64,000 nt of DNA from an uncultured Gemmatimonadales bacterium (GTDB taxonomy: Bacteria; Gemmatimonadota; Gemmatimonadetes; Gemmatimonadales; GWC2-71-9), in NCBI GenBank assembly GCA_963779755.1, contig CAVZZO010000003.1, positions 352,001 to 416,000 of the forward strand. The letters are read 5' to 3'. Shown here in pieces: positions 14,015-54,317 of the stretch. Position 1 is the stretch's first letter. The number at the start of each line of letters is the position of its first letter. Below the pieces are notes generated by a model. That model saw nothing but the letters and a program-made list of their open reading frames with translations. It did not search any database and had not been told where the DNA came from. Both the position numbers and the translations under genes were made by a program.

Positions 14015-14171
14015 TGCTCCTCCGTTCAGGCCGTCCGCCTAACGAAGTGCGCGTGTGCTGCGGCGCGAACCCAACTTCCTTCACAAACTTACGGTTCCGC
14101 AGCGCGGCCGCTAGATGCCGGGGAGAGGCACTACGCGGCCGCACCGCCGGCCCTGTCAGCTCGACGCGCTC

Positions 14172-14708: not shown

Positions 14709-14937
14709 TCTACTTGGGTGGTTTCTGGTTGCCGGGGGAATTTTCTACATCGGCGCTGCTGCGTTCGACTGGATTGGGCGAGCAGCAAGTGTGCCCATCG
14801 TGAAGTGGCTTATCCTGCCGCTCCGCATAGGTGAAATACGCTGGGTTGGTGGTGGCAATCGACGATTTGCCGCTACCCTCGGCATCTTTCTTCTAGTCAT
14901 CGGCTTGCTACTCGTCTTGTTCGGTCCTGAACGATAG
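14701..14937 (+). CDS. Putative two-TM immunity protein (Imm17-like)
   Basis: MSSLLGWFLVAGGIFYIGAAAFDW...; overlaps toxin stop; Imm17 resemblance is from recollection and needs an HMM check. Confidence 0.6.
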   Translation: MSSLLGWFLVAGGIFYIGAAAFDWIGRAASVPIVKWLILPLRIGEIRWVGGGNRRFAATLGIFLLVIGLLLVLFGPER

Positions 14938-14945
14938 GCTGCCGA

Positions 14946-15435
14946 AGGAGCCGGCCTCGTCTAGCCTGGGGCGCTCGCAGTGCCTCCGGGTTGTCGGGCC
15001 TGAGCTCCGAGGGGTCGGGTCTAGTTAGGAGCCTCGCGGGCTGCCGCGCGTGGCGGACCTCGGCCGGCGGAAAAGGAAAGTGGTGGGGGCCCCACGAGTT
15101 CAGCGGAACCCATCGGCTCCAGACCTGCCGCGAGCCGGCTCCCTCGTCGGGCGTCATGCGCCCACGGGAGCAGACGGGGTCACCCCACCGGCTCCAAGGT
15201 GCTACCCGGTCCTTCGATTGTCAAAGAGCGCCGCGTTCCGCGTGCCGGCGGGATCCTGGCACCACCCTCATAGGTCGTTGAGGCTCGGGGCCTCCCACAT
15301 CTTCATGGATGCTCTCCGATCCGCGGCCGGGCGGCCAGCAACACTCTGTGCGCGGAGCTCACCGAAGACGCCGGCGGCTCAAGGCAAATAGTGGGCGGCC
15401 CGGCCGCGCACGCGCGGCTCCCCACCGATCTCCGG
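14946..15435. ncRNA. Candidate bridge/seekRNA-encoding non-coding region of the IS110 element (copies at 23197-23687 and 29671-30156)
   Basis: Conserved, hairpin-rich, no credible ORF, downstream of the recombinase as in IS1111-type elements; contains GTCTAGTTA (15019-15027) matching the insertion junction. Confidence 0.55.
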
Positions 15436-16704
15436 CTATTCGCTCACCACCGGCTCTGCCCGATGCCGCTGCGCCTCCCAGCGCTCCCGCTCGAACGGCT
15501 GGCCCGAGTGGAGTACGGCCAGGAGGAGCGGCACCAGCTTGCGCGCCACCGCACAGACCGCCTTGGTCCGGAGCCCGCCATTGCGGGCCAGCAGGGCCTG
15601 ATAGTACGCGCGGTAGAGCCCCCGGGGCTGGCACCAGCGGCCGCCCAGGAGGAACAGCTGGCGGCGGAGCAGCGGCCGGCCCCGTTTGGACTGTTTGCGC
15701 CGCCCCTGCACGCTGCCGCTGGAACGCTCGACCAGATTCATGCCTGCGAGTTTCAGCACCTGGCGGGGATGAGTGAAGCGCTCCGGAGTGCCCAGCTCGG
15801 CCACAATCGTAGCCGCACAGGTGGCACTCACCTCGGGAATGGTGGTCAGCGCCTTGGCGGCGGGACACTGCTCCACCAAGGCGGCGATCTGCTGGTTCAA
15901 CACCGCGAGCTGCTCCCGCAGGAGGTCCCAGCGGGCCAGGAGCTGCTGGATCTCCAACCGCCGCTCGGGAGCGGCGTCGGCCAGGGCGACACTGGTGCGG
16001 GCGGACTCGCGCAGGACGTGGAGCCGCTCCGGGCCCACGTGGCCCCGCGAGACGGACCGCGCCAGGCGCGTCACCGCGGCCGGGGCGGCCGCCAGGAAGT
16101 CCTGCGGCAGCGGCCAACGCGCCAGCAGGGCGCGCGGGGTGGGCTTGCGCACCTGCGAGAAGTGCGTCAGGAACTCGGGCCAGGCCAGGTCGAGCAGGCT
16201 CTGGAGACGGTTCTTGAACCGGGTTTCCTCGACGGTTAACCGGTGCCGGTGGGTGGTGAGCAGCCGCAGCTCGAGATACGGGGGCTGCAGCGCCGGATAT
16301 CCCACGAAGATCCCCAGGCTCACCAGCTTGCAGATCTCGGCGGCATCCTTCGCGTCCGTCTTGTTGGGGCTGTTATCCTCCAGTTCCTTGGCCCGCTTGG
16401 TGTGGGCCGGCAGGATATTGACCAGCGCATAGCCGCGCGCCCGCAGGCACTCGGCAAACGTGAAGCCGTGATGGCCGGCGAACTCCAGCCCCACCAGCAT
16501 CTGTCCGGGCCGGATGCCGGGAAACCAGGCCGTCAACTGCGCCGCGGCGGCCTCGAAGCCCGCGCGGCTCACCGGCACCCGGACCGGCTTCGTGCGGCGC
16601 CCATCGGGGCCCTGAGCAACCAGCACGTGGACCCGCTTCGCGGTATCCACGCCTACGTGAACGGGGAACGTGCGGGTATAGGCAGACTTTTCGTCGGGGG
16701 TCAT
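15436..16704 (-). CDS. IS110-family recombinase/transposase
   Basis: DEDD residues in HVGVDTAK, GLEFAG and KTDAKDA; C-terminal SSGS serine motif and AVARKL; ATG at 16704 has GGAG RBS (ORF track extends to 16731). Confidence 0.95.
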   Translation of the reverse strand: MTPDEKSAYTRTFPVHVGVDTAKRVHVLVAQGPDGRRTKPVRVPVSRAGFEAAAAQLTAWFPGIRPGQMLVGLEFAGHHGFTFAECLRARGYALVNILPAHTKRAKELEDNSPNKTDAKDAAEICKLVSLGIFVGYPALQPPYLELRLLTTHRHRLTVEETRFKNRLQSLLDLAWPEFLTHFSQVRKPTPRALLARWPLPQDFLAAAPAAVTRLARSVSRGHVGPERLHVLRESARTSVALADAAPERRLEIQQLLARWDLLREQLAVLNQQIAALVEQCPAAKALTTIPEVSATCAATIVAELGTPERFTHPRQVLKLAGMNLVERSSGSVQGRRKQSKRGRPLLRRQLFLLGGRWCQPRGLYRAYYQALLARNGGLRTKAVCAVARKLVPLLLAVLHSGQPFERERWEAQRHRAEPVVSE

Positions 16705-16800
16705 GGCGCGGCTCCGGGTGGAGGGAATCACAGGAGTCGCGGAAGGAGCTACGGGCCGCGCAGCGGCGTCAAGCGGGTATAGATGTCTAGTTAAGCGACT

Positions 16801-22265: not shown

Positions 22266-22447
22266 GGGGGCTCCTCCTTGGAGCCTGAAATATAGCGGCG
22301 ACCGGTCCCTGACGCTTAACGAAGTGCGCGTGTGCTGCGGCGCGAACCCGCGCTCCTTCACAAACCTACGTTTCCACAGCGCGACAGCTAGATCCCCGGG
22401 AGATGCGCCGCCAGCCCGCGCGACCGGCCCGTCAGAACGACGCGCTC

Positions 22448-22903
22448 ATGTACGCGGATCCTTTCGGGCTGCTTGCCCAGGATTGTTGTATCGAAACGGG
22501 GGATTGGCGAAAGGATAACCTGCTTCACCCTGCTGTCTACAGCGGCAAGAGAGACAACCCGATGCTGGGAGTAGCTGTGGGTCTCCTGGCCGTTGCAGGT
22601 GGGGCCGAACTGGCTGCTCCCAGGTTATTTGCCGCGGCCACCGCTGCTCTTCCTAAGGTACCGTTTGAGAAATTCCAGGACTGGGGACGAAATGTTGTCC
22701 AATGGGGCCGTGGGGCAGCGGGGGCAATTCAGCGGGTTTCTGAAGTGACGGCCGAGCAGGCCTCTAAATTGGATCCACAGAAAGTGAAGATGGCTCGCGA
22801 CTTCTACCAGAAAGCTGTTGATGCTGGCCGAGGGGGAGCCGCCGCACCCGAACGAGTAAAGCTGATGGAACGCATTTTAGACCTGCAGCAGAGAACCCAT
22901 TAG
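22448..22903 (+). CDS. Orphan Rhs-type toxin C-terminal tip B (DUF4951-like C-terminus)
   Basis: Begins MYADPFGL, hydrophobic middle, WGRGAAGA...RDFY...RVKLM; DUF4951 resemblance is from recollection. Confidence 0.7.
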   Translation: MYADPFGLLAQDCCIETGDWRKDNLLHPAVYSGKRDNPMLGVAVGLLAVAGGAELAAPRLFAAATAALPKVPFEKFQDWGRNVVQWGRGAAGAIQRVSEVTAEQASKLDPQKVKMARDFYQKAVDAGRGGAAAPERVKLMERILDLQQRTH

Positions 22904-22949
22904 TGGCTCGGTCCGGTCTATTCGAGCATTGCAACACGGAGGAAGAGCC

Positions 22950-23198
22950 ATGCTGGAAGCAGCGGTCACACTTCGGCTTACGAATAGATGCGAAACTGCG
23001 CGGAAGCTCGTGATTGAGCCATGGACCACCGAGTTTCGACTGCAACCTGGGCACACTTACGACTTGGTGATATCAGGGGACCTTGGCCTCCCCTTAGAGG
23101 TTGAGTTCGAGGACGACGAACTAACCGTATACACTTTCGATTCCGCCAATGCCTCCTTCAAGATTTCCGAAGGCGGGGCTGAACTTAAACCACTGTAG
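22950..23198 (+). CDS. Putative immunity protein B
   Basis: GGAGG RBS, small acidic protein after the toxin, IEPW motif shared with 40756-41010. Confidence 0.65.
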   Translation: MLEAAVTLRLTNRCETARKLVIEPWTTEFRLQPGHTYDLVISGDLGLPLEVEFEDDELTVYTFDSANASFKISEGGAELKPL

Positions 23199-23687
23199 GA
23201 GCCCGGCCCTGTCTAGCCTGGGGCGCTCGGGGCGCCTCCGGGTTGTCGGGCCTGAACTCCGAGGGGTCGGGTCTAGTTAGGAGCCTCGCGGGCTGCCGCG
23301 CGTGGCGGACCTCGGCCGGCGGAAAAGGAAAGTGGTGGGGGCCCCACGAGTTCAGCGGAACCCATCGGCTCCAGACCTGCCGCGAGCCGGCTCCCTCGTC
23401 GGGCGTCATGCGCCCACGGGAGCAGACGGGGTCACCCCACCGGCTCCAAGGTGCTACCCGGTCCTTCGATTGTCAAAGAGCGCCGCGTTCCGCGTGCCGG
23501 CGGGATCCTGGCACCACCCTCATAGGTCGTTGAGGCTCGGGGCCTCCCACATCTTCATGGATGCTCTCCGATCCGCGGCCGGGCGGCCAGCCATACTCTG
23601 TGCGCGGAACTCACCGAAGACGCCGGCGGCTCAAGGCAAATAGAGGGCGGCCCGGCCGCGCACGCGCGGCTCCCCCCCGGTCTCCGA

Positions 23688-24956
23688 CTATTCGATCACC
23701 ACCGGCTCTGCGTGATGCCGCTGGGTCTCCCAGCGCTCCCGGTCGAACGGCTGGCCCGACTGGAGCACGGCCAGGAGGAGCGGCACCAGCTTGCGGGCCA
23801 CCGCGCAGACCGCCTTGGTCCGGAGCCCCCCGTTACGGGCGAGCAGGGCCTGATAGTACGCGCGGTAGAGCCCCCGGGGCTGGCACCAGCGGCCGCCCAG
23901 GAGGAACAGCTGGCGGCGGAGCAGCGGCCGGCCCCGTTTGGACTGTTTGCGCCGCCCCTGCACGCTGCCGCTGGAACGCTCGACCAGATTCATGCCTGCG
24001 AGTTTCAGCACCTGGCGGGGATGAGTGAAGCGCTCCGGAGTGCCCAGCTCGGCCACAATCGTAGCCGCACAGGTGGCACTCACCTCGGGAATGGTGGTCA
24101 GCGCCTTGGCGGCGGGACACTGCTCCACCAAGGCGGCGATCTGCTGGTTCAACACCGCGAGCTGCTCCCGCAGGAGGTCCCAGCGGGCCAGGAGCTGCTG
24201 GATCTCCAACCGCCGCTCGGGAGCGGCGTCGGCCAGGGCGACACTGGTGCGGGCGGACTCGCGCAGGACGTGGAGCCGCTCCGGGCCCACGTGGCCCCGC
24301 GAGACGGACCGCGCCAGGCGCGTCACCGCGGCCGGGGCGGCCGCCAGGAAGTCCTGCGGCAGCGGCCAACGCGCCAGCAGGGCGCGCGGGGTGGGCTTGC
24401 GCACCTGCGAGAAGTGCGTCAGGAACTCGGGCCAGGCCAGGTCGAGCAGGCTCTGGAGACGGTTCTTGAACCGGGTTTCCTCGACGGTTAACCGGTGCCG
24501 GTGGGTGGTGAGCAGCCGCAGCTCGAGATACGGGGGCTGCAGCGCCGGATACCCCACGAAGATCCCCAGGCTCACCAGCTTGCAGATCTCGGCGGCATCC
24601 TTCGCGTCCGTCTTGTTGGGGCTGTTATCCTCCAGTTCCTTGGCCCGCTTGGTGTGGGCCGGCAGGATATTGACCAGCGCATAGCCGCGCGCCCGCAGGC
24701 ACTCGGCAAACGTGAAGCCGTGATGGCCGGCGAACTCCAGCCCCACCAGCATCTGTCCGGGCCGGACGCCGGGAAACCAGGCCGTCAACTGCGCCGCGGC
24801 GGCCTCGAAGCCTGCGCGGCTCACCGGCACTCGGACCGGCTTCGTCCGCCGGCCATCGGGGCCCTGGGCGACCAGGACGTGAACGCGCTTGGCGGTGTCC
24901 ACACCCACGTGGACGGGAAACCAGCGGGCGTAGGCGGACTTCTCATCGGGGGTCAT
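23688..24956 (-). CDS. IS110-family recombinase/transposase
   Basis: Near-identical to 15436-16704 with variant termini. Confidence 0.95.
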   Translation of the reverse strand: MTPDEKSAYARWFPVHVGVDTAKRVHVLVAQGPDGRRTKPVRVPVSRAGFEAAAAQLTAWFPGVRPGQMLVGLEFAGHHGFTFAECLRARGYALVNILPAHTKRAKELEDNSPNKTDAKDAAEICKLVSLGIFVGYPALQPPYLELRLLTTHRHRLTVEETRFKNRLQSLLDLAWPEFLTHFSQVRKPTPRALLARWPLPQDFLAAAPAAVTRLARSVSRGHVGPERLHVLRESARTSVALADAAPERRLEIQQLLARWDLLREQLAVLNQQIAALVEQCPAAKALTTIPEVSATCAATIVAELGTPERFTHPRQVLKLAGMNLVERSSGSVQGRRKQSKRGRPLLRRQLFLLGGRWCQPRGLYRAYYQALLARNGGLRTKAVCAVARKLVPLLLAVLQSGQPFDRERWETQRHHAEPVVIE

Positions 24957-25065
24957 AGCGCGGCTCCGGGTGGAAGGAATCACAGGAGTCGCGGAAGGAG
25001 CTACGGGCCGCGCCGCGGCGTCAAGCGGGTATAGATGTCTAGTTAGGCTTCACTGCGCATTCAAC

Positions 25066-25446
25066 TTATCCGAAGCGTTCTCTGAAGCCTTCCTGTGCCT
25101 CGCTGATAATAGGCAAGAGCTCGTGCTCGGCGACTTGAACAGTTTCGATACCAAGCCGCTCCGCCTCACTGGCTACGGACTGAGCTACCAGATCCTTCGG
25201 AAGAAGCAGGGTCTTTGGCCAGCGCCTCTTATGATCATGCGCCTCCTTCAGCAGACGCTTTGCCTCGAGCTGACTGGGCTCCGCCTGATCTACTGGAACG
25301 GGCGCGGAGCTGAGAATGAAGCAGCTCGCCGCGTCCATCAGTGCAAGAAAATGGAAATCCCCGTCCTGCTCTGTGCGGATGGGCTCCTTGTTCAGTTTGA
25401 ACCAGATCCAGGCTTGGTTGATTTCGAACTGATTTGGGTGGAGCAC
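25066..25446 (-). CDS. Hypothetical protein (cassette)
   Basis: ORF fills the cassette bounded by GTTAGGCTTCAC and GTGAAGCCTAAC. Confidence 0.65.
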   Translation of the reverse strand: MLHPNQFEINQAWIWFKLNKEPIRTEQDGDFHFLALMDAASCFILSSAPVPVDQAEPSQLEAKRLLKEAHDHKRRWPKTLLLPKDLVAQSVASEAERLGIETVQVAEHELLPIISEAQEGFRERFG

Positions 25447-25599
25447 TGGTGAACCTCTGGTGAAGCCTAACGAAGTGCGTTTCAGCGGCGGCGCGATGCC
25501 CCGCTCCTCCACAATCCTACGCTTCCACAGCGCGACCGCTAGATCCGGGGGCAATGCACCAACAGGCAGCAGCACCGGCCCGCCCGCTGGAAACGCTAG

Positions 25600-26100
25600 T
25601 TAGGGTCGCAGGCGCTCGACACCCAAGTGAACCGGTTTCCACGAGTCGAAACCGGTACCGATCAGCGCGCCGAGAGCACCCCACGTCAGGCCAGTACCGA
25701 TTATGGCTCCGGCTTCCCCCTGACCTGCAGGTCGCTGCTCCGCTGTGCCGACCACATAGACCAAGGCCAGGCCGGCGCCCACGAGCGCACCGATCACCGC
25801 TCCTCGCCGTGCTTGGTTGCCTTGGCGTACTTCGACGAGGCTCAACCCGGCCGCGGGCCGGCGAATGGTGTCCGCGGCCCCCCTCGCAGTGCACGCGGGA
25901 CTCGGGTAGCTGCAATACACGATAGTATCCGTCTGGGCACCGAGTGGCGACAGCAAACGCCCACGCGCTGGAGGAGCGAGGGACCACGTCAGACGCACCA
26001 CACTCCCAACGGGGAGAACGGCTAGGGAGTCCCTCTTCTGGGCACCGGCAATCGCTGGCCACAGAAGGAGCAGGGCGACTGCAAAGAAGGCATGCCGCAT
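25600..26100 (-). CDS. Hypothetical exported glycine-zipper membrane protein (cassette)
   Basis: Signal peptide MRHAFFAVALLLL; stop in attC TAA; duplicated at 37368-37868. Confidence 0.7.
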   Translation of the reverse strand: MRHAFFAVALLLLWPAIAGAQKRDSLAVLPVGSVVRLTWSLAPPARGRLLSPLGAQTDTIVYCSYPSPACTARGAADTIRRPAAGLSLVEVRQGNQARRGAVIGALVGAGLALVYVVGTAEQRPAGQGEAGAIIGTGLTWGALGALIGTGFDSWKPVHLGVERLRP

Positions 26101-27611: not shown

Positions 27612-27825
27612 GTTATATGGCGAAACGCTCTCGGCCTCAACCGGAACCGGGGCCAAATGCCTGGGCCGCCTCACGGAGACCGGGGCGCCGGCACCTGTTG
27701 GAACTTCTGCCGCGCTTTGATGCATGGCGGCCCGAACAGCGCCCTCAAGGAACTTGGGCGGCCACCACCAGATGCTGTTGTACATCAAAAGAGAACGAGC
27801 AGTCCAGCCCGTTCGACCATATAAC
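27612..27825 (-). other. ORF-less cassette family C (copies 41627-41840, 51256-51469, 51596-51809)
   Basis: ~210 bp between attC sites, ends GTTATATGG and CCATATAAC, no ORF stopping within the cassette. Confidence 0.8.
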
Positions 27826-27952: not shown

Positions 27953-28357
27953 TTAGGTTGCTGCAGGATGCCCGCTGCGCCGGCGCCATTCAAAGACGAC
28001 GACCAGGGCGAGAACGAGCAGAATGGGAGCCGTCAGTACCCCTGGGGTATAGCCTCCTTGCTGCCAGGACCACAACGGATGACCGACGCCGTTGATGACT
28101 TCGATGGTCACCCAGAACGTGACAATCGCTCCCGTCCCACGCCAGCCGCGCCTCACGGGCCAGATAAAGCACCAAACCCCAAAAGCAACGAGGGCGACAT
28201 TGAGGACCGCAAACCCGACCTGCCGGTTGCTCGACACTAAGCCGGTGAGAATGCGGGCTGGCGGGAAGGAGTCGTAGAGCTTGCCCAGATATTCCTCGAC
28301 CGAGTGCGCTGCCTGGCCAAGTACCAGTGCTCCAAACGCCAAGTGAAAGCGAGACAT
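27953..28357 (-). CDS. HXXEE-domain membrane protein (cassette)
   Basis: HSVEE motif and YTPGVLTA; stop in attC TAA. Confidence 0.85.
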   Translation of the reverse strand: MSRFHLAFGALVLGQAAHSVEEYLGKLYDSFPPARILTGLVSSNRQVGFAVLNVALVAFGVWCFIWPVRRGWRGTGAIVTFWVTIEVINGVGHPLWSWQQGGYTPGVLTAPILLVLALVVVFEWRRRSGHPAAT

Positions 28358-28501
28358 GCTTGGCAGCAACCTAACGAAGTGCGCGTGTGCTGCAGCGCGG
28401 TCCTTCAGGTTCTCACAAACCTACGTTTCCTTAGCCGCGCCGCCAGGAGGCTCGGCCGATGCCAGGCAGCCAGCGCGACCGGCCTGCAGAACGACGCGCT
28501 T

Positions 28502-28797: not shown

Positions 28798-28922
28798 GAA
28801 GTGCGCGTGTGCTGCAGCGCGATCCCTCAGGATTTCACAAACTTACGCTTCCACAGCCGCGCCGCCAGGAGGCCGGAGCATGGGCCCGCGGCCCGCGCGA
28901 CGGCCTGCAGAACGACGCGCTC

Positions 28923-29377
28923 ATGTACGCGGATCCTTTCGGGCTGCCTGCCCAGGATTGTTGTATCGAAACGGGGGATTGGCGAAAGGATAACCTGCTT
29001 CACCCTGCTGTCTACAGCGGCAAGAGAGACAACCCGATGCTGGGAGTAGCTGTGGGTCTCCTGGCCGTTGCAGGTGGGGCCGAACTGGCTGCTCCCAGGT
29101 TATTTGCCGCGGCCACCGCTGCTCTTCCTAAGGTACCGTTTGAGAAATTCCAGGACTGGGGACGAAATGTTGTCCAATGGGGCCGTGGGGCAGCGGGGGC
29201 AATTCAGCGGGTTTCTGAAGTGACGGCGAGCAGGCCTCTAAATTGGATCCACAGAAAGTGAAGATGGCTCGCGACTTCTACCAGAAAGCTGTTGATGCTG
29301 GCCGAGGGGGAGCCGCCGCACCCGAACGAGTAAAGCTGATGGAACGCATTTTAGACCTGCAGCAGAGAACCCATTAG
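28923..29377 (+). pseudogene. Toxin tip B, frameshifted copy
   Basis: Same as 22448-22903 apart from a 1-nt deletion near 29227 and a substitution near the start. Confidence 0.75.
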
Positions 29378-29423
29378 TGGCTCGGTCCGGTCTATTCGAG
29401 CATTGCAACACGGAGGAAGAGCC

Positions 29424-29672
29424 ATGCTGGAAGCAGCGGTCACACTTCGGCTTACGAATAGATGCGAAACTGCGCGGAAGCTCGTGATTGAGCCATGGAC
29501 CACCGAGTTTCGACTGCAACCTGGGCACACTTACGACTTGGTGATATCAGGGGACCTTGGCCTCCCCTTAGAGGTTGAGTTCGAGGACGACGAACTAACC
29601 GTATACACTTTCGATTCCGCCAATGCCTCCTTCAAGATTTCCGAAGGCGGGGCTGAACTTAAACCACTGTAG
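29424..29672 (+). CDS. Putative immunity protein B (copy)
   Basis: Identical protein to 22950-23198. Confidence 0.65.
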   Translation: MLEAAVTLRLTNRCETARKLVIEPWTTEFRLQPGHTYDLVISGDLGLPLEVEFEDDELTVYTFDSANASFKISEGGAELKPL

Positions 29673-30156
29673 GAGCCCGGCCCTGTCTAGCCGGGGCGCT
29701 CGGGGCGCCTCCGGGTTGTCGGGCCTGAACTCCGAGGGGTTGGGTCTAGTTAGGAGCCTCGCGGGCTGCCGCGCGTGGCGGACCTCGGCCGGCGGAAAAG
29801 GAAAGTGGTGGGGGCCCCACGAGTTCAGCGGAACCCATCGGCTCCAGACCTGCCGCGAGCCGGCTCCCTCGTCGGGCGTATGCGCCCACGGGAGCAGACG
29901 GGGTCACCCCACCGGCTCCAAGGTGCTACCGGTCCTTCGATTGTCAAAGAGCGCCGCGTTCCGCGTGCCGGCGGGATCCTGGCACCACCCTCATAGGTCG
30001 TTGAGGCTCGGGGCCTCCCACATCTTCATGGATGCTCTCCGATCGCGGCCGGGCGGCCAGCAACACTCTGTGCGCGGAGCTCACCGAAGACGCCGGCGGC
30101 TCAAGGCAAATAGAGGGCGGCCTGGCCGCGCACGCGCGGCTCCCACCGATCTCCGG

Positions 30157-31422
30157 CTATTCGCTCACCACCGGCTCTGCGTGATGCCGCTGCGCCTCCC
30201 AGCGCTCCCGCTCGAACGGCTGGCCCGAGTGGAGTACGGCCAGGAGGAGCGGCACCAGCTTGCGCGCCACCGCACAGACCGCCTTGGTCCGGAGCCCGCC
30301 ATTGCGGGCCAGCAGGGCCTGATAGTACGCGCGGTAGAGCCCCCGGGGCTGGCACCAGCGGCCGCCCAGGAGGAACAGCTGGCGGCGGAGCAGCGGCAGG
30401 CCCCGTTTGGACTGTTTGCGCCGCCCCTGCACGCTGCCGCTGGAACGCTCGACCAGATTCATGCCTGCGAGTTTCAGCACCTGGCGGGGATGAGTGAAGC
30501 GCTCCGGAGTGCCCAGCTCGGCCACAATCGTAGCCGCACAGGTGGCACTCACCTCGGGAATGGTGGTCAGCGCCTTGGCGGCGGGACACTGCTCCACCAA
30601 GGCGGCGATCTGCTGGTTCAACACCGCGAGCTGCTCCCGCAGGAGGTCCCAGCGGGCCAGGAGCTGCTGGATCTCCAACCGCCGCTCGGGAGCGGCGTCG
30701 GCCAGGGCGACACTGGTGCGGGCGGACTCGCGCAGGACGTGGAGCCGCTCCGGGCCCACGTGGCCCCGCGAGACGGACCGCGCCAGGCGCGTCACCGCGG
30801 CCGGGGCGGCTGCCAGGAAGTCCTGCGGCAGCGGCCAACGCGCCAGCAGGGCGCGCGGGGTGGGCTTGCGCACCTGCGAGAAGTGCGTCAGGAACTCGGG
30901 CCAGGCCAGGTCGAGCAGGCTCTGGAGACGGTTCTTGAACCGGGTTTCCTCGACGGTTAACCGGTGCGGTGGGTGGTGAGCAGCCGCAGCTCGAGATACG
31001 GGGGCTGCAGCGCCGGATATCCCACGAAGATCCCCAGGCTCACCAGCTTGCAGATCTCGGCGGCATCCTTCGCGTTCGTCTTGTTGGGGCTGTTATCCTC
31101 CAGTTCCTTGGCCCGCTTGGTGTGGGCCGGCAGGATATTGACCAGCGCATAGCCGCGCGCCGCAGGCACTCGGCAAACGTGAAGCCGTGATGGCCGGCGA
31201 ACTCCAGCCCCACCAGCATCTGTCCGGGCCGGACGCCGGGAAACCAGGCCGTCAACTGCGCCGCGGCGGCCTCGAAGCCTGCGCGGCTCACCGGCACTCG
31301 GACCGGCTTCGTCGCCGGCCATCGGGGCCCTGGGCGACCAGGACGTGAACGCGCTTGGCGGTGTCCACACCCACGTGGACGGGAAACCAGCGGGCGTAGG
31401 CGGACTTCTCATCGGGGGTCAT
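30157..31422 (-). pseudogene. IS110 recombinase, frameshifted copy
   Basis: Homologous to the other two copies but split across frames. Confidence 0.85.
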
Positions 31423-31508
31423 AGCGCGGCTCCGGGTGGAAGGAATCACAGGAGTCGCGGAAGGAGCTACGGGCCGCGCCGCGGCGTCAAGCGGGTATAG
31501 ATGTCTTG

Positions 31509-31934
31509 TTAGACAGTGCCCCGTACCTCCTGAACGCGTCCACCTACGACCGGGTCATATGGAGAAGGACACGGACATCTTGAGCCGGGCGGGCACGTGT
31601 TGCGTGTTAGCATCGCCGGTTGAAACCGGCAAGTCCTGATAGATGCAGCAGCTGCAGCCCCGAACCTGGCATCGGAAGCACTCAGAACCCGCACTGACGC
31701 GCTGTCCACGGACCCGCTTGAATCGACAATGAAGGCCAAGGAGACGGTCCCAGATACTCGGGCAACTCGTAAGGAAGGTGGATAGACGGGCTCTACGCAG
31801 CTGATGTAACGCGGGAGGCTATCGAGAGTTGAACCATCTAGGGCGGTGGCCGGCTGGTGCTTGCCAGCCCCAGGGATCCCGTTGGTAGCACAGGCTGCGA
31901 GGAGTAAGAACGCCACAGCTGTACTTCCTCTCAT
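31509..31934 (-). CDS. TonB C-terminal-domain lipoprotein (cassette; C-terminus possibly frameshifted)
   Basis: LAAC lipobox, PVYPPSLR...GTVSLAFIVDSSG...RFQPA. Confidence 0.7.
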   Translation of the reverse strand: MRGSTAVAFLLLAACATNGIPGAGKHQPATALDGSTLDSLPRYISCVEPVYPPSLRVARVSGTVSLAFIVDSSGSVDSASVRVLSASDARFGAAAAASIRTCRFQPAMLTRNTCPPGSRCPCPSPYDPVVGGRVQEVRGTV

Positions 31935-34947: not shown

Positions 34948-35352
34948 TTAGGTTGCTGCAGGATGCCCGCTGCGCCGGCGCCATTCAAAGACGACGACCA
35001 GGGCGAGAACGAGCAGAATGGGAGCCGTCAGTACCCCTGGGGTATAGCCTCCTTGCTGCCAGGACCACAACGGATGACCGACGCCGTTGATGACTTCGAT
35101 GGTCACCCAGAACGTGACAATCGCTCCCGTCCCACGCCAGCCGCGCCTCACGGGCCAGATAAAGCACCAAACCCCAAAAGCAACGAGGGCGACATTGAGG
35201 ACCGCAAACCCGACCTGCCGGTTGCTCGACACTAAGCCGGTGAGAATGCGGGCTGGCGGGAAGGAGTCGTAGAGCTTGCCCAGATATTCCTCGACCGAGT
35301 GCGCTGCCTGGCCAAGTACCAGTGCTCCAAACGCCAAGTGAAAGCGAGACAT
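34948..35352 (-). CDS. HXXEE-domain protein, copy 2
   Basis: Identical protein to 27953-28357. Confidence 0.85.
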   Translation of the reverse strand: MSRFHLAFGALVLGQAAHSVEEYLGKLYDSFPPARILTGLVSSNRQVGFAVLNVALVAFGVWCFIWPVRRGWRGTGAIVTFWVTIEVINGVGHPLWSWQQGGYTPGVLTAPILLVLALVVVFEWRRRSGHPAAT

Positions 35353-35507
35353 GCTTGGCAGCAACCTAACGAAGTGCGCGTGTGCTGCAGCGCGATCCCT
35401 CAGGTTTGCACAGTCCTACGCTTCCTTAGCCGCGCCGCTAGGAGGCCCGAGCGAGGGCCGGCGACCCGCGCGACCGGCCTGCAGAACGACGCGCGTGTTA
35501 GACAGCG

Positions 35508-36817: not shown

Positions 36818-37222
36818 TTAGGTTGCTGCAGGATGCCCGCTGCGCCGGCGCCATTCAAAGACGACGACCAGGGCGAGAACGAGCAGAATGGGAGCCGTCA
36901 GTACCCCTGGGGTATAGCCTCCTTGCTGCCAGGACCACAACGGATGACCGACGCCGTTGATGACTTCGATGGTCACCCAGAACGTGACAATCGCTCCCGT
37001 CCACGCCAGCCGCGCCTCACGGGCCAGATAAAGCACAAAACCCCAAAAGCAACGAGGGCGACATTGAGGACCGCAAACCCGACCTGCCGGTTGCTCGACA
37101 CTAAGCCGGTGAGAATGCGGGCTGGCGGGAAGGAGTCGTAGAGCTTGCCCAGATATTCCTCGACCGAGTGCGCTGCCTGGCCAAGTACCAGTGCTCCAAA
37201 CGCCAAGTGAAAGCGAGACATG
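36818..37222 (-). pseudogene. HXXEE-domain protein, copy 3, frameshifted
   Basis: Split into ORFs 36818-37036 and 36973-37233. Confidence 0.75.
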
Positions 37223-37367
37223 CTTGGCAGCAACCTAACGAAGTGCGTTTCAGCGGCGGCGCGATGCCCCGCTCCTCCACAATCCTACGCTTCCACAGCG
37301 CGACCGCTAGATCCGGGGGCAATGCACCAACAGGCAGCAGCACCGGCCCGCCCGCTGGAAACGCTAG

Positions 37368-38534: not shown

Positions 38535-38939
38535 TTAGGTTGCTGCAGGATGCCCGCTGCGCCGGCGCCATTCAAAGACGACGACCAGGGCGAGAACGAG
38601 CAGAATGGGAGCCGTCAGTACCCCTGGGGTATAGCCTCCTTGCTGCCAGGACCACAACGGATGACCGACGCCGTTGATGACTTCGATGGTCACCCAGAAC
38701 GTGACAATCGCTCCCGTCCCACGCCAGCCGCGCCTCACGGGCCAGATAAAGCACCAAACCCCAAAAGCAACGAGGGCGACATTGAGGACCGCAAACCCGA
38801 CCTGCCGGTTGCTCGACACTAAGCCGGTGAGAATGCGGGCTGGCGGGAAGGAGTCGTAGAGCTTGCCCAGATATTCCTCGACCGAGTGCGCTGCCTGGCC
38901 AAGTACCAGTGCTCCAAACGCCAAGTGAAAGCGAGACAT
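38535..38939 (-). CDS. HXXEE-domain protein, copy 4
   Basis: Identical protein to 27953-28357. Confidence 0.85.
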   Translation of the reverse strand: MSRFHLAFGALVLGQAAHSVEEYLGKLYDSFPPARILTGLVSSNRQVGFAVLNVALVAFGVWCFIWPVRRGWRGTGAIVTFWVTIEVINGVGHPLWSWQQGGYTPGVLTAPILLVLALVVVFEWRRRSGHPAAT

Positions 38940-39927
38940 GCTTGGCAGCAACCTAACGAAGTGCGCGTGTGCTGCAGCGCGATCCTTCAGGATTTCACAA
39001 ACCTACGCTTCCTTAGCCGCGCCGCCAGGAGGCCTAGGAAGGGCCGGCGGACCGCGCGACCGGCCTGCAGAACGACGCGCTTGTTAGCAACCAGCTGCGC
39101 ACGGCGGCCTAGGCTAGCGCGGAGCCCGCGCGCGAAGCCCTGGCCGCCGCTGGGAACGGTGCGGCGCGGGGACGGCCCGGTGGCGTGGAACTCTGACGGC
39201 ACCTGCCCTGCCCCGACCGCGCCGGGCTCCAGAAGCCCTGGGCGGCGGATTCGTTTGAGCCTTTCTGCACGGAGGCGGGGCCGCCCGCAAGGAGTTGCTC
39301 TCGGGTTCCTGAGCTCCGCGGCCCTGATGGGGCCCACCAAAGAGACCCGCTGCGGTGCCTCGCTTGTGTTGCTAACGAAGTGCGCGTGTGCTGCAGCGCG
39401 ATCCTTCAGGATGTCACAAACCTACGCTTCCTTAGCCGCGCCGCCAGGAGGCTCGGTCGATGCCAGGCAGCCAGCGCGCCCGGCCTGCAGAACGACGCGC
39501 TTGTTAGCAACCAGCTGCGCACGGCGGCCTAGGCTAGCCCGGAGCCCGCGCCCCGAAGCCCTGGCCGCCCGCTGGGAACGGTGCGGCGCGGGGACGGCCC
39601 GGTGGCGTGGAACTCTCACGGCACCTGCCCTGCCCCGACCGCGCCGGGCTCCAGGAGCCCTGGGCGGCGGATTCGTTTGAGCCTTTTTGCACGGAGGGCG
39701 GGGCCGCCCGCAAGGAGCTGCTCTCGGGTTCCTGAACTCCGCGGCCCTCATGGGGCCCACCAAAGAGACCCGCTGCGGTGCCTCGCTTGTGTTGCTAACG
39801 AAGTGCGTTTCAGCGGCGGCGCGATGCCCCAGCCCTTTCACAATCCTACGCTTCCACAGCGCGACCGCTAGATGCCGGGGCTAGGCACCAAAAGGCAGCA
39901 GCCTCGGCCCGTCCGCTGGAAACGCTA

Positions 39928-40270: not shown

Positions 40271-40594
40271 GTTATGTGGCAACCACGCGGGCCGACGCTC
40301 CACACCGCGCGGCGATCTCTTCGGCCGCCTCGCAGAGCCCAGGGCGACTCCCAGGCCCGCATGCCCGGCCGCGTCAGAGCACTGAGGGCGCCGGCGCGAT
40401 GATCACACCCGAAAATGCTTGGGACCTTGCCCTGCCGGCGCCCATACGGGGCCGCGGCGCCACCACTGGATCGGAGCCCGCTGGGAATCCTGGCGGCCAG
40501 CGCCACAGCGGATCACAAAAGGCCACAAGCGAGGAGCCGTTCTGACTGCTGTACAGAAAGACCCAGGAACAGTCCGGCTTCCTTGCCACATAAC
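40271..40594 (-). other. ORF-less cassette family E (copy 42390-42709)
   Basis: Ends GTTATGTGGCAA and TTGCCACATAAC; shares GAACAGTCCGGC with family D. Confidence 0.78.
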
Positions 40595-40755
40595 GAAGTG
40601 CGTTTCAGCGGCGGCGCGATGCCCCGCTCCTACATGATCCTACGCTTCCATAGCGCGACCGCTAGATCCTCCGGAGATGAACCACGAGGCCGCAGCCCCG
40701 GCCCGCCCGCTGGAAACGCTAGTTAGACAGCAGGCAAGTGAGAGGCCGAGAAGCT

Positions 40756-41010
40756 TCATTCCGATTTCAGCTCAGTGCCGCCACGAAATGCCTTGAGCTC
40801 GGCGCCAGGAGTATCGAACGCGGAGATGGTGATCTCGGAACCCTGGAGCTCAATCAGCAGCGGCGTACCGGGAGTTCCGGTGACCTCAACTTCGAGATCA
40901 CCGTGTGAACCGATCGTGTATTCACCTGTCCAAGGCTCAAGGATCACCTTGCGGGCCTCGTCGTCAAGGTTCGCCAGTCGGAGCCGGAAGGTGATCGGTT
41001 TACTGGACAT
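40756..41010 (-). CDS. Orphan homolog of immunity protein B, as a normal cassette
   Basis: LRLANLDDEARKVILEPWTGEY...GGTELK aligns with LRLTNRCETARKLVIEPWTTEF...GGAELK. Confidence 0.75.
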   Translation of the reverse strand: MSSKPITFRLRLANLDDEARKVILEPWTGEYTIGSHGDLEVEVTGTPGTPLLIELQGSEITISAFDTPGAELKAFRGGTELKSE

Positions 41011-43967
41011 AGCGGGCCGTTCCACGTTGGCAATTGGCTACAATGCGAAGGGTCCTGCTGGCTAACGAAGTGCGCGTGTGCTGCAGCGCGATCCCTCAGG
41101 TTTTCACAAACCTACGCTTCCACAGCCGCGCCGCTAGGTGGCCCGAGCGTGGGTCTACAGCCCGCGCGACCGGCCTGCAGAACGACGCGCTTGTTAGCTG
41201 CCGGCCGAGAGGACGCTACCTCTTCCGGCTGGGGACCCACGCTCGGAGGCACGGCCGCCGGCCGGAAGCCCTAGCGGGGCGGAGGAAGATCGGATGCCTC
41301 CGAACCAGCTTGGGGCCTTCCGTGCCCCGAACGCCTCGCGGCCAGGAGTCTTGGGCGGCCCGGCGGAGTGTTCCATGCGACCCGCGCAAGGAGGCCGGTG
41401 CCGCCTCACGACGATCAAGCAGTTCAGGAAGCCCGGCGGCACCATCAGGAGCCCACCAAGAGATCAGCAACGGACAGCTTGGCTGGCTCGTGCAGCTAAC
41501 GAAGTGCGCGTGTGCTGCAGCGCGGTCCTTCAGGATTTCACAAACCTACGCTTCCACAGCCGCGCCGCCAGGAGGCCGGAGTGTGGGCCAGGGGCCTGCG
41601 CGACTGGCCTGCAGCACGACGCGCTTGTTATATGGCGAAACGCTCTCGGCCTCAACCGGAACCGGGGCCAAATGCCTGGGCCGCCTCACGGAGACCGGGG
41701 CGCCGGCACCTGTTGGAACTTCTGCCGCGCTTTGATGCATGGCGGCCCGAACAGCGCCCTCAAGGAACTTGGGCGGCCACCACCAGATGCTGTTGTACAT
41801 CAAAAGAGAACGAGCAGTCCAGCCCGTTCGACCATATAACGAAGTGCGCGTGTGCTGCAGCGCGATCCTTCAGGATGTCACAAACCTACTCTTCCTTAGC
41901 CGCGCCGCCAGGAGGCTCGGTCGATGCCAGGCAGCCAGCGCGCCCGGCCTGCAGAACGACGCGCTTGTTAGCAACCAGCTGCGCACGGCGGCCTAGGCTA
42001 GCCCGGAGCCCGCGCCCCGAAGCCCTGGCCGCCCGCTGGGAACGGTGCGGCGCGGGGACGGCCCGGTGGCGTGGAACTCTCACGGCACCTGCCCTGCCCC
42101 GACCGCGCCGGGCTCCAGGAGCCCTGGGCGGCGGATTCGTTTGAGCCTTTTTGCACGGAGGGCGGGGCCGCCCGCAAGGAGCTGCTCTCGGGTTCCTGAA
42201 CTCCGCGGCCCTCATGGGGCCCACCAAAGAGACCCGCTGCGGTGCCTCGCTTGTGTTGCTAACGAAGTGCGCGTGTGCTGCAGCGCGATCCCTCAGGATT
42301 CCACAAACCTACGTTTCCTTAGCCGCGCCGCTTGGAGGCCTCAGGAAGGGCCGGCGGCCCGCGCGACCGGCCTGCAGAACGACGCGCTTGTTATGTGGCA
42401 ACCACGCGGGCCGACGCTCCACACCGCGCGGCGATCTCTTCGGCCGCCTCGCGGAGCCCAGGGCGACTCCCAGGCCCGCATCCCGGCCGCGTCAGAGCAC
42501 GAGGGCGCCGGCGCGATGATCACACCCGAAAGTGCTTGGGACGTAGCCCTGCCGGCGCCCATACGGGGCCGCGGCGGCACCACTGGATCGGAGCCCGCGA
42601 GGAATCCGGGCGGCCAGCGCCGACGATAACAAAGCACGAGGAACCAGGAGCCGGCAGCTTCCTCAACAGAAAAGGAACCAGGAACAGTCCGGCGTCCTTG
42701 CCACATAACGAAGTGCGTTTCAGCGGCGGCGCGATGCCCCACTCCCTCACAATCCTACGCTTCCACAGCGCGACCGCTAGACCGCCGGGAGATCCCCAAG
42801 CGGCGGCAGCACCGGCCCGCTCGCTGGAAACGCTAGTCAGCCGCAACGCGCTCTCCGCCACGTGCGGAGCGGAGCCAAGATCCCTGGGCCGCCTCACGGA
42901 GATCGGGGCGCGGCACCGGTTAGAACTTCTGACGCGCTTTGATGTGCTGCGGCCGGAAAAGAGCCCTCACGGAGCTACGGCGGCCACCGCCAGATGCTTA
43001 TCACGAACGGAAGCGAATCATAGGAACAGTCCTCGGCTTGCTTGCGGTGTAACGAAGTGCGCGTGTGCTGCAGCGCGAACCCTCAGGTTTTCACAAACCT
43101 ACGCTTCCATAGCCGCGCCGCTAGGAGGCTTCGGGTCGATGCCAGGCAGCCCGCGCGACCGGCCTGCAGAACGACGCGCTTGTTCAGAGACCGGCTGCGC
43201 ACGGCGGCCTGAGCTAGATCGGAGCCCGCGCCCCGAAGCATTGGCCGCCCGCTGGGAACGGTGCGGCGCGGGGACGGCCCGGTGGCGTGGAAAACGCCGG
43301 GCACCTGCCCTGCCCCGACCGCGCCGGGCTCCAGGAGCCCTGGGCGGCGGAATCGCTTTGAGCCTTTTTCCACGGGGGGCTGGGCCGCTCGCAAGGAGCT
43401 GCTCTCGGATTCCTGAAATCGGCGGCCCGCCTGGGGCCGCCTCAAAGAAGACCCGCAGCCGTGCCTGGCTTGTGTTGCTAACGAAGTGCGTTTGAGCGGC
43501 GGCGCGATGCCTCAGGCCCTCACAAACCTACGTTTCCACAGCCGCGACCGCTAGGAGGGCCGGGAGATGCCCCAAGCGGCCGGCAGCGGCCGGCCCGCTA
43601 GCTGGAAACGCTAGTTACAGCTGCAACGCGCTCTCCGCCACGTGCGGAGCGGAGCCAAGATCCCTGGGCCGCCTCACGGAGATCGGGGCGCCGGCACCGG
43701 TTAGAACTTCTGATGCGCTTTGATGTGCGGCGGCCGGAAAAGCGCCCTCGCTGGAGCTCCGGCGGCCACCACCAGATGCTTTTCACAACAGAAGAGAAAG
43801 GAACAGTCCGGCTTGCTTGCGGTGTAACGAAGTGCGTTTCAGCGGCGGCGCGATGCCCCGCTCCCTCACAATCCTACGCTTCCGCAGCGCGACCGCTAGA
43901 TGCCCGGGGATGCACGATCAGAGAGCAGCCCCGGGCTCGTCCGCTGGAAACGCTAGTTAGACAGCGG

Positions 43968-50901: not shown

Positions 50902-51105
50902 TTATACGGAACCGCGACGGACCTCTTCGAGCACATCGCGGGCTCGACCATAATCTTCCTCGGCGACTACCCATACGCTGAACGGGTTCCCGTGAATGCC
51001 GGACAGAGCCTCGCCGCGTACGACGGCCGGAATACCCGCAGCCTCAAGGGCCAGCTTCAGGCTGTATGCATCTGTCGCCACTGATGACCGGAGTAGTTCA
51101 CGCAT
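50902..51105 (-). CDS. DUF2007-like small protein (cassette)
   Basis: LKLALEAAGIPAVVRGE...VWVVAEEDYGRARDVL; stop in attC TAA. Confidence 0.7.
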   Translation of the reverse strand: MRELLRSSVATDAYSLKLALEAAGIPAVVRGEALSGIHGNPFSVWVVAEEDYGRARDVLEEVRRGSV

Positions 51106-52762
51106 CCGTATTGCCTGGGTGCCGTATAACGAAGTGCGCGTGTGCTGCAGCGCGGTCCTTCAGGATTTCACAAACCTACGCTTCCACAGCCGCGCCGCCA
51201 GGAGGCCGGAGTGTGGGCCGGGGCCTGCGCGACTGGCCTGCAGAACGACGCGCTTGTTATATGGCGAAACGCTCTCGGCCTCAACCGGAACCGGGGCCAA
51301 ATGCCTGGGCCGCCTCACGGAGACCGGGGCGCCGGCACCTGTTGGAACTTCTGCCGCGCTTTGATGCATGGCGGCCCGAACAGCGCCCTCAAGGAACTTG
51401 GGCGGCCACCACCAGATGCTGTTGTACATCAAAAGAGAACGAGCAGTCCAGCCCGTTCGACCATATAACGAAGTGCGCGTGTGCTGCAGCGCGGTCCTTC
51501 AGGATTTCACAAACCTACGCTTCCACAGCCGCGCCGCCAGGAGGCCGGAGTGTGGGCCAGGGGCCTGCGCGACTGGCCTGCAGAACGACGCGCTTGTTAT
51601 ATGGCGAAACGCTCTCGGCCTCAACCGGAACCGGGGCCAAATGCCTGGGCCGCCTCACGGAGACCGGGGCGCCGGCACCTGTTGGAACTTCTGCCGCGCT
51701 TTGATGCATGGCGGCCCGAACAGCGCCCTCAAGGAACTTGGGCGGCCACCACCAGATGCTGTTGTACATCAAAAGAGAACGAGCAGTCCAGCCCGTTCGA
51801 CCATATAACGAAGTGCGTTTCAGCGGCGGCGCGATGCCCCGCCCTTTCACAATCCTACGCTTCCTTACCGCGACCGCTAGATCCCCGGGAAATGCGCCAG
51901 CAGGCTGCAGCCCCGGCCCGCCCGCTGGAAACGCTAGTTAAATGGCAGCCGTCCACGAGAGGTGATCGATTCCGTTCCCCGATCTCCCCAACGCACGACT
52001 CCCCTACCCCGCTCGCGGAGGACTGTGGCTCCGAGCGCTTGGACTTCGGATCTGGGCAACCCAGCCTGGGAGCGACGTCTCTACGCGCCCCCTGAGCCCG
52101 CTACGAGATCCGGGGCCCGCTGAGCGCCCGCCGGAATGCACTAATGCAGGGGTTCTACCTGCGCTCGTGCCAAAGGCCGCATTCCTGAGCCGCCCAGTTG
52201 GCCGGGCCTTCCTCCGAAAGGAGCACCTACTGGATCAGCCAAGGACGGCCGGCACGTCCATTTAACGAAGTGCGTTTCAGCGGCGGCGCGATGCCCCGCT
52301 CCCTCACAATCCTACGCTTCCTTACCGCGACCGCTAGATGTCCGAGAAATGCACCAGCGGGCTGCAGCACCGTGCCCGCCCGCTGCAAACGCTTGTTAGC
52401 TGCCGGCCGCAATGACAATTTCGGGTGCGATGACGCTGCCGGTATGTGCGGAGCCCCCGCGCCGGGAGACTACGGGCCGCACGGCGCGCTGCAACCGGCA
52501 GAAGCCGGCGCCGTCGGCGGCCAGCTGACGCGCTAGGAGAAGGCAGCGACGCTCTCCGAACCCGCTCGGACTGCACCTTCCTTGCCATGGAGCCGCCCCG
52601 CGGAGAGAAACCTTGGGCGGCATCGCGGAGCCTTCCAGGCGACCCGCCGCAAGGAGGCCTGGTGCCGCCTCACCGCTACCAACGCAACTGCAGAGTTCCG
52701 GCGGCACCACCAGAGCGCTCTCACCAAGAGATCAGCACTGGAGCGGCCCGGCTGGCGCGTGC

Positions 52763-53143: not shown

Positions 53144-54136
53144 CTACGCCCGGTCCATCGGGCTCCGCACCCCCAGCCCACCCCGCTGCAGGACATGGGT
53201 ATAGATCATCGTGGTGCTGACGTCCCGATGGCCCAGCAGCTCCTGCACGGTCCGGATGTCATACCCATCCTCCAGCAGGTGGGTCGCGAAGCTGTGCCGC
53301 AGGGTGTGGCAGCTCGCCCGCTTGGTGAGGCCCGCCGCCTGGACCGCCTTGCGCATGGCGCGCTGCAGCAGACTATGGTGCACGTGGGTCCGCCCCTGCC
53401 CTCCCGTCTCCGGCTCGACCACCATGATCCTCCTCCCGGGGAAGAGATACTGCCAACGCCACTCCCGCGATGCCGCCGGGTACTTGCGCCGCAACGCGAA
53501 CGGCAGCGGCGCCACCCCCAGCCCCTCACTCAGGTCGCGCTGATGCCGCAACCGCAGCTGCGCGAGGTACTGCGTGAGTTCGTCCCGAAGGCTCATGGGC
53601 AGCATGGTACTGCGGTCCTTGGCCCCCTTGCCGCTCCGGACCATGACCTGGCTCATGGTGAAATCCAGGTCCTGCACCCGCAGCCGCAGGCACTCGGTCA
53701 GCCGCAGACCACTCCCATAGAGCAGGCTGGCCATCAGCCGGCACCGCCCCCGCAGCTGCCGCAGCACCAGCCGAACTTCCTCCCGGCTCAGCACCACCGG
53801 CAATCGATGCGGCCGCTTGGCCCACACGATCTGTTCCACCTGCGCCAGCTCCCGCCCCAGGACCTCCCGGTAAAGAAAGACCAGCGCCGAGAGCGCCTGG
53901 TTCTGGGTGCTCGCCGCCACCCGCCCCCGCAGCGCCAGGTCGGTCAGAAAGTCTCCCACCTCCCGCTCGGCCAGATCGGCCGGGTGGCGCTTGCCGTGGA
54001 AGAGGACAAAACGCCGGATCCAGTGCACGTAGGAACGCTCGGTCCGGGGGCTGTAGTGCCGGGCACGAATGGCCTGCCGGACCAGGGGCAGGAGCCGGGG
54101 ACGCGCCCGCACGGGCGGCTGCAGGGCGGAATCCAT
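53144..54136 (-). CDS. intI: Integron integrase
   Basis: [12 protein letters not shown]-terminus, [34 protein letters not shown] and the IntI-specific insertion [10 protein letters not shown]...WRWQYLFP. Confidence 0.97.
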
Positions 54137-54317
54137 GCGCCAACCTATAACGAGGCAGGGCAAGCCTCGGCCTGATTGGAGCGCAGCCGGGCACGGAAAA
54201 GCGCGGGGCAGCTCGGGAGGGGGGATTCAGCGGGTCCCTGCGCCGTCTTCCCGCCTTCCCGCCTTCCCGCCTACCTTTGGATCACACCATTGCCAGGTCC
54301 CGCGCCCGGAGGTCGTC

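Follow-up and report, generated by a model that had tools for sequence, protein, structure and literature searches.

A putative orphan Rhs immunity gene carried as an integron cassette in an uncultured Gemmatimonadales bacterium

The 84-amino-acid gene lies in a regular integron cassette

We analysed a 64,000-nucleotide stretch of the genome of an uncultured Gemmatimonadales bacterium (contig CAVZZO010000003.1, positions 352,001 to 416,000), hereafter the window, in whose own numbering coordinates are given unless a contig or locus is named. The window contains a long integron array and within it, roughly 24th in order counted from attI, a cassette whose sole gene, in sense orientation, is an open reading frame (ORF) for a protein of 84 amino acids. 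This protein resembles the product of immB, a gene elsewhere in the window that directly follows toxB, an orphan C-terminal tip of an Rhs protein. The features that define the cassette are the following.

40756–41010, minus strand: 84-amino-acid ORF (ATG at 41010, stop codon at 40756–40758); clade I member and putative orphan immunity gene
41065 to 40594, minus strand: complete cassette, 472 bp, from TTAGCC (41065) through the G of its own R′ box (40594)
40594–40728, minus strand: the cassette's own attC (R″ GTCTAAC at 40728–40722, R′ G at 40594), within the 44-attC alignment
41066–41199, minus strand: attC of the preceding, attI-proximal cassette; its R′ forms the 5′ boundary of the cassette of the 84-amino-acid ORF
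53144–54163, minus strand: integron integrase IntI (TIGR02249, 448 bits against a cut-off of 265)

The array comprises 58 attC-like repeats of about 139 nucleotides, all in a single orientation, between positions 10044 and 52401. An 11-nucleotide motif search gave 65 plus-strand matches, and the count of 58 excludes 3 that lie beyond the array as well as 4 spurious internal matches. Each attC starts with ..YTAAC and ends with GTTAR.., and the halves around each unique region are inverse-complementary. Compensatory change is apparent in an alignment of 44 attCs, where two stem pairs are altered on both sides in 19 sequences. The crossover points of the cassette, read from the R boxes GGCTAAC (41060–41066) and CACATAAC (40587–40594), give an attC spacing of 472 bp, and the cassette consists of a 55-nucleotide leader, the ORF, a 27-nucleotide spacer and the attC, with a unique part of 332 bp. 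Its core sites on the minus strand, GTCTAAC (40728–40722) and GTTAGCC (41066–41060), satisfy RYYYAAC and GTTRRRY, respectively. A 13-nucleotide inverted repeat that flanks the cassette (40722–40734 and 41054–41066, 92% complementary) represents the R-box halves GTTAGAC and GGCTAAC.

We found that the top strand of the array is the minus strand, because four observations agree. A cassette encoding an HXXEE protein is present four times, and in all copies the low-coordinate attC is constant while the attC on the other side differs. IntI lies at the high-coordinate end of the array, and cassette ORFs supported by Pfam matches are mostly on the minus strand. Finally, the attC hairpin of the preceding cassette (41058–41202), which is long and imperfect (−36 kcal/mol), places the extrahelical G of the L box on the 3′ arm of the plus (bottom) strand; an extrahelical G on the bottom strand is a canonical attC feature and marks that strand. 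The same observations ruled out the plus strand as top strand, for which a 3-nucleotide bulge on the 5′ arm of the Vienna fold had been considered. The cassette's own attC (40586–40731) folds more weakly when taken alone (z about −1). With the minus strand as top strand and IntI on the minus strand, the integrase is therefore co-oriented with its cassettes.

This polarity also assigns the cassette its own attC at 40594–40728. A previous reading from the sequence alone (the sequence-only reading) had described a regular cassette with its own attC in the interval 40722–41066. The cassette stands, but the interval gives the bounds of the R-box repeat, and the attC lies mostly beyond it. The ORF thus sits in a regular, sense-oriented, single-gene integron cassette. 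A GTG at 41025 is a possible longer start, and the ATG at 41010 is matched in the alignment of relatives (MSSKPITFRLRL and MSAESPVRFTLRL).

The cassette protein and ImmB belong to one family with two clades

The comparison with immB involves two further features of the window.

22448–22903, plus strand: toxB, orphan Rhs C-terminal tip that starts with MYADPFGL and contains a DUF4951-like helical domain; the only intact copy of three
22950–23198, plus strand: immB, clade II paralog directly downstream of toxB; identical copy at 29424–29672 and a third in contig C1

Searching the window by tblastn with the 84-amino-acid sequence yielded two identical stretches (22971–23189 and 29445–29663; 38.4% identity over 73 amino acids, E = 1.1e-14). 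In pairwise BLASTP the protein and ImmB share 28 of 73 residues without gaps (E = 1e-18). The alignment spans residues 10–82 of 84, so that its earlier description as an end-to-end match was nearly right, and it agrees with the motif string previously recognized in both proteins. The 84-amino-acid ORF occurs once in the whole genome, and immB three times in identical form, twice in the window and once in contig C1. No toxin-B-like sequence adjoins the cassette ORF, as the sequence-only reading had stated: its cassette has just 332 bp of unique sequence, and a search of the whole genome with toxB returned only the three known loci. The ORF has an attC on both sides and follows neither an rhs gene nor an orphan rhs C-terminal tip (rhs-CT), unlike immB and its relatives in L024 and L036–L039.

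Both proteins are members of a small family. An exhaustive HMMER search of 1.84e9 representative sequences gave 28 matches at E ≤ 1e-3, nearly all of 66–100 amino acids, and a profile search gave 56 clusters, all tiny, 'hypothetical' or unnamed and without a Pfam domain, two of them from Myxococcus isolates. A word-index protein search with the 84-amino-acid protein alone returned only the query, and the ESM Atlas only unnamed 'hypothetical' clusters. The family is rare, with a match in one of 400 other genomes sampled from the phylum. Profile searches recovered both clades described below as one family, with the common motifs LEPWTGEY and FDSxGA, and the cassette protein retains all of the residues conserved across the family (E25, P26, W27, G45 and the FD motif). 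Its AlphaFold2 model is all-beta with seven strands (predicted local distance difference test score (pLDDT) 94.1, predicted template modelling score 0.82).

A maximum-likelihood tree of 38 rows split into groups of 24 and 14 with 97/99 support. ImmB falls in clade II, the larger of the two, together with every toxin-linked member, and the 84-amino-acid protein in clade I. Excluded from the tree were P0004/L035, P0013 and P0015 (long), P0014/L042 (frameshifted), P0021 and P0027 (long, with weak repeats), L027, L029 and L030 (proteins the same as in L026 and L028) and L025. Clade-specific hidden Markov models assigned 71 retrieved database proteins as 53 of clade II, 13 of clade I (query included) and 5 ambiguous. 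The long proteins P0021 (1,114 amino acids; a Ser/Thr kinase with Sel1 repeats) and P0027 (3,141 amino acids) each match the family weakly and repeatedly, 4 times in P0021 (E about 2e-4) and 6 times in P0027 (E about 5e-4), and these matches may represent a distant, repeated-domain relative of the fold.

Clade II genes follow toxin-B-like Rhs tips and clade I genes recur as cassettes

We then compared the surroundings of family members in 21 foreign loci (L021 and L024–L043), of which L025, a match of only 15 amino acids, was dropped. The loci were sampled from 8 closer sequences and comprise only those encoding [LM]EPW[TA]GEY, so that the counts below are biased to that motif. A toxin-B-like domain, detected by tblastn with toxB at 42–62% identity, lies immediately upstream of the family member in five loci (L024 and L036–L039). 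In L024, L036 and L037 this domain is the C terminus of an Rhs protein and follows the motif pair DPxGL-x18-DPFGL, in ORFs that reach at least 1,638 amino acids or run off the contig. The motif pair is also present in L039, in a shorter ORF, and L038 is frameshifted. Together with the present genome, six of the seven clade II loci with upstream sequence are toxin-linked, L041 being left out of the count because it has only 190 bp upstream. In the exception, L043, the copy is truncated at its N terminus and lies with an IS3-type transposase gene on one side and an Rhs-like ORF on the other. The expectation that homologs lie downstream of toxin-B-like tips was thus borne out for clade II and not for clade I.

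Clade I has a different recurrent context. Six of its loci have upstream sequence (the present cassette, L026, L028–L030 counted once, L031, L032 and L042), and five of the six, including four from soil metagenomes, are integron cassettes. We scanned the 20 loci for attC-like hairpins with pairing TAAC...GTTA ends and 16 or more spanning pairs. Such hairpins flank the gene on both sides in L026, L031 and L032, follow it directly in L027 and occur elsewhere on the contig in L042; the scan found no attC-like sites in the other 15 loci. In the four metagenome cassettes the attC begins at the stop codon or no more than 15 nucleotides after it. L033, L034, L035 and L040 begin at a contig edge, and the scan detected no attC-like site downstream of them. 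Relatives that are 48–54% identical to the 84-amino-acid protein are cassettes in other arrays with different attCs. Because relatives are cassettes elsewhere, the gene family is cassette-borne, which does not show mobility of the present cassette. No toxin accompanies the cassette gene, a true orphan, or its closest relatives, most of which are cassettes of unrelated arrays with different attCs. This recurrence of clade I orphans as cassettes is the most interesting new fact to emerge from the analysis.

The toxB domain and the Rhs background of the genome

The motif DPxGL closes the Rhs core ahead of the variable toxin tip (PMC3150448), and toxin A (14172–14708), like toxB, opens with MYADPFGL. 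The C-terminal 92 amino acids of ToxB match Pfam DUF4951 (PF16309, E = 1e-7), and a model of this C-terminal domain has five helices (pLDDT 85.7). Its only relative among solved structures is 2mmb_A (hmmsearch E = 2.1e-6; Foldseek template modelling score 0.67, root-mean-square deviation 2.0, 75 columns), an uncharacterised 107-amino-acid Acinetobacter protein of family DUF4951 without known activity, which the domain matches in both sequence and fold. A full-text literature search for 'DUF4951' returned 0 papers, and a toxB profile had 0 matches in the 400 other genomes of the phylum.

As a rule, the small ORF that follows an rhs-CT encodes the immunity protein specific to it, and such modules also occur as orphans (Poole 2011, PMC3150448). 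Since a toxin-B-like domain lies upstream of family members in five foreign loci, the immunity label of immB has support from synteny. Synteny at no fewer than six loci, combined with the published rhs-CT/rhsI rule, provides good circumstantial support for clade II as putative immunity genes. Compared with the intact copy at 22448–22903, the copies of toxB at 28923–29375 and C1:684204–684655 are each disrupted, through either a frameshift or an in-frame stop, and all three immB copies are intact, a pattern expected if immunity outlasts toxin decay.

Outside the window, a 60-kb region (C3:1488825–1548432) has 13 Rhs-core matches, 12 of them above the cut-off, with several full-length genes (ORFs of 1,394–1,665 amino acids) and many short orphan fragments. 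No toxin-B-like tip was found in this region.

IS110-family units with Rhs cargo lie in attC sites

The toxB–immB pair is part of a larger unit that recurs in the genome.

23197–25045, minus strand: IS110-family part common to all units, with transposase at 23688–24983; forms with toxB–immB one unit inserted in an attC
14171–16793 (A), 22447–25045, 28922–31511 and C1:684206–686794 (L006:12204–14793): four composite units, each in a different attC

Each unit consists of a conserved left end of about 22 nucleotides encoding MYADPFG (where the Rhs core closes), a toxin tip, an immunity gene, about 490 non-coding nucleotides and an IS110-family transposase gene, so that a toxin–immunity pair stands between the left end and the 1.85-kb insertion sequence (IS) part. 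The pair of unit A is unlike that of the three B units. The ends are common to all four, ...GACGCGCT|CATGTACGCGGATCCTTTCGGG on the left and GATGTCT[A/T]GTTA| on the right, and all four lie at the same position (GACGCGCT | ... | GTTAG..) of four different attC bodies. They look like an attC-targeting element of the IS110/IS1111 type with swappable Rhs-CT/immunity cargo. An Rfam search of 22300–25600 gave nothing at E ≤ 0.1 and did not confirm the presumed guide RNA of the IS. Truncated relatives of the transposase (56–57% identity) stand beside a toxin-B/immunity module in L024 (6953–7849) and L043 (13–162). The L024 relative comes immediately after a full-length rhs gene, and rhs loci may be where the IS acquires Rhs tips.

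The IS-borne toxin system proposed in the sequence-only reading is therefore real, and its link to the cassette gene is one of sequence homology only. IS sequence is absent from the cassette of the 84-amino-acid ORF and likewise from its closest relatives, which are cassettes of other arrays.

Other contents of the array

Among the 67 other cassette ORFs, Pfam matches include toxin–antitoxin families (ParE, a ParE-like toxin, an addiction-module antitoxin, HicA, HicB-like, two PIN, Fic/Doc and Xre) and methyltransferase, glyoxalase, DoxX, HXXEE, DUF2007 and zinc-ribbon families. None of the 67 matched a Pfam immunity family, and one of about 58 cassettes is immunity-like. The view that the array banks immunity genes is not sustained by this inventory.

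The array is highly repetitive. Very short cassettes of 200–310 bp recur (for example at 27620–27819, 41635–41834 and 51604–51803) and may lack an ORF or encode peptides of under 60 amino acids. The HXXEE cassettes are at 27953–28369, 34948–35364, 36818–37233 and 38535–38951, and one copy is apparently disrupted. Two attC sequence types, ...AAGCGCGT-CGTTCTGCAG... and ...TAGCGTTTCCAGCGG..., have matched differences on both hairpin arms and are interspersed with one another along the array. A second set of attC-like repeats in the same genome (C1:672000–690000; L006), 78–85% identical to the attCs of the window, represents another cassette array and contains a solo remnant of the IS right end (L006:1507–1652). 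A DUF2007 cassette is present in the window array (50902–51105, minus strand), and a DUF2007-like cassette (L026:606–845) adjoins a clade I homolog, which hints at a cassette pool common to arrays with unlike attC sequences.

Is the cassette gene an orphan immunity gene?

On balance, we lean towards the explanation that the 84-amino-acid protein is an orphan immunity protein, a prediction from homology and gene context. The ORF would be a functional gene in an ordinary cassette, encoding a seven-stranded all-beta protein. Clade II, including ImmB, would be the cognate RhsI-type immunity partner of a DUF4951-like toxin domain at the Rhs C terminus, and clade I a sister clade that travels without the toxin, mostly as integron cassettes. 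Expression would follow when IntI moves the cassette near attI, or would occur by read-through, and the protein would then neutralise, by binding, an Rhs toxin related to toxin B that a competitor delivers.

Several results weigh against this explanation. None of the six clade I loci with upstream sequence bears a toxin-B-like domain there, a branch with 97/99 support parts clade I from all toxin-linked members, and nothing ties clade I directly to a toxin. Because clade I is both separate and free of toxin linkage, we infer, rather than observe, an immunity function for the cassette gene; the synteny that supports the assignment of immB does not carry over to it. In L028–L030 the gene lies tightly between two membrane-protein genes, 6 bp behind the first, a DUF4386 gene, and overlapping the second downstream, an operon-like context without a toxin. 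The family is previously undescribed, with neither a curated family match nor a structural relative: a Pfam and NCBIfam scan of all 23 aligned members gave nothing significant (best E 0.061 and 0.065, in one member each and to unrelated families), Foldseek found no fold relative of the cassette protein in the PDB at E ≤ 1e-3, and the best Z of VIA-align wide, 4.6, is below the meaningful level. The toxic activity of the DUF4951-like domain is itself only putative. Immunity proteins are usually specific, so 38% identity to ImmB argues against protection from the genome's own ToxB. The cassette is probably promoterless, as no sigma-70-like promoter was found in it, a weak negative given that host promoters may differ.

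An alternative is that clade I is a diverged paralog with another function, perhaps serving a membrane system as a small binding or accessory protein, and has only ancestry and fold in common with the Rhs immunity clade. The cassette would then be one more of unknown function. The toxin-free loci, the well-supported split between the clades and the membrane-gene neighbours in L028–L030 all favour this alternative, as do the weak repeated matches in two long non-toxin proteins, one of them the Ser/Thr kinase. Clade I nevertheless keeps all conserved positions, the same length and the same stand-alone form, and its patchy, rare distribution (one of 400 genomes, tiny clusters) and carriage on cassettes fit an accessory competition gene; orphan immunity genes are, moreover, expected by definition to lack a toxin. 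We therefore consider a diverged paralog a serious candidate but not a probable one. Another possibility, which we judge unlikely, is silent decay: the ORF would look intact but, buried far inside a repetitive array, would be an unexpressed passenger that confers no benefit. The distance from attI, about 24 cassettes, the missing promoter-like site and the abundance of duplicated short cassettes are consistent with such a passenger, but the ORF is full length, keeps every conserved residue and gives a model with a pLDDT of 94, in contrast to the two of three toxB copies in the genome that are visibly broken. We regard as very improbable that the gene is a backup of immB against the genome's own ToxB. 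Family membership and a toxin in the same genome would allow this, but three intact immB copies are present already, the cassette protein is only 38% identical to ImmB and falls in the other clade, and cognate specificity is the rule for RhsI as described in PMC3150448.

A broader extension of the orphan-immunity explanation is that clade I is a free-standing Rhs-immunity lineage that circulates among soil bacteria specifically as cassettes, such that IntI/attC integrons would serve as on-demand stores of resistance to contact-delivered Rhs toxins, an integron counterpart of the Bacteroidales arrays for recombinase-associated acquired interbacterial defence (rAID). Both halves of the arms race would then use the integron as a landing pad, because an IS110-family element moves the matching toxin–immunity modules into attC sites of the same genome. 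We put this extension forward tentatively and find it doubtful as it stands.

Relation to known systems and significance

The closest parallels are the orphan immunity genes of Rhs, contact-dependent growth inhibition (CDI) and type VI secretion system (T6SS) loci, as excerpts of PMC3150448 and PMC5361080 present them. These are likewise small stand-alone homologs of a post-tip gene without the toxin, in genomes that also have Rhs toxins and orphan rhs-CT/immunity modules. They differ in location: known orphans are in or beside an rhs, cdi or T6SS locus, where they arise by displacement or homologous recombination, whereas the present gene is an attC-bounded cassette of an IntI integron and its clade has never been observed next to a toxin. 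In the excerpt consulted, Kirchberger et al. 2017 (PMC5361080) report no evidence of integrase involvement in orphan immunity genes. A different comparison is offered by Ross et al. 2019 (bioRxiv 10.1101/471110), who describe the Bacteroidales rAID-1 clusters, XerD-linked arrays of orphan immunity genes 'reminiscent of integrons'. These too are recombinase-linked stores between repeated intergenic sequences, but they use a XerD-family recombinase and hold up to 31 mostly immunity-like genes, compared with an IntI of TIGR02249, attC sites and one immunity-like cassette of about 58 here.

Sedentary chromosomal integrons with toxin–antitoxin and anti-phage genes (Darracq et al. 2024, as cited in PMC12082036) are similar as large stores of small, mostly silent defence genes, and the present array contains ParE, HicA, PIN, Fic/Doc and antitoxin cassettes. 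The threats described for those integrons are phage and plasmid loss; the one proposed here is a contact-delivered bacterial toxin. Our full-text literature search found no paper on Rhs immunity genes as attC cassettes, a point on which the supplements of PMC11089894 may bear; that paper, on plant-microbiome integrons, mentions 'immunity proteins' among predicted cassette effectors without detail.

The gene-context comparison defines a putative toxin–immunity pair, newly delimited and previously unannotated, that comprises a DUF4951-like Rhs-CT and a beta-sandwich protein of 80–90 amino acids, and this would give DUF4951 its first functional context. If the orphan-immunity explanation is true, integrons would capture and shuffle interbacterial immunity genes in addition to antibiotic-resistance, toxin–antitoxin and anti-phage genes, and a module of 0.5 kb could transfer immunity to contact-dependent killing horizontally, separately from the toxin.

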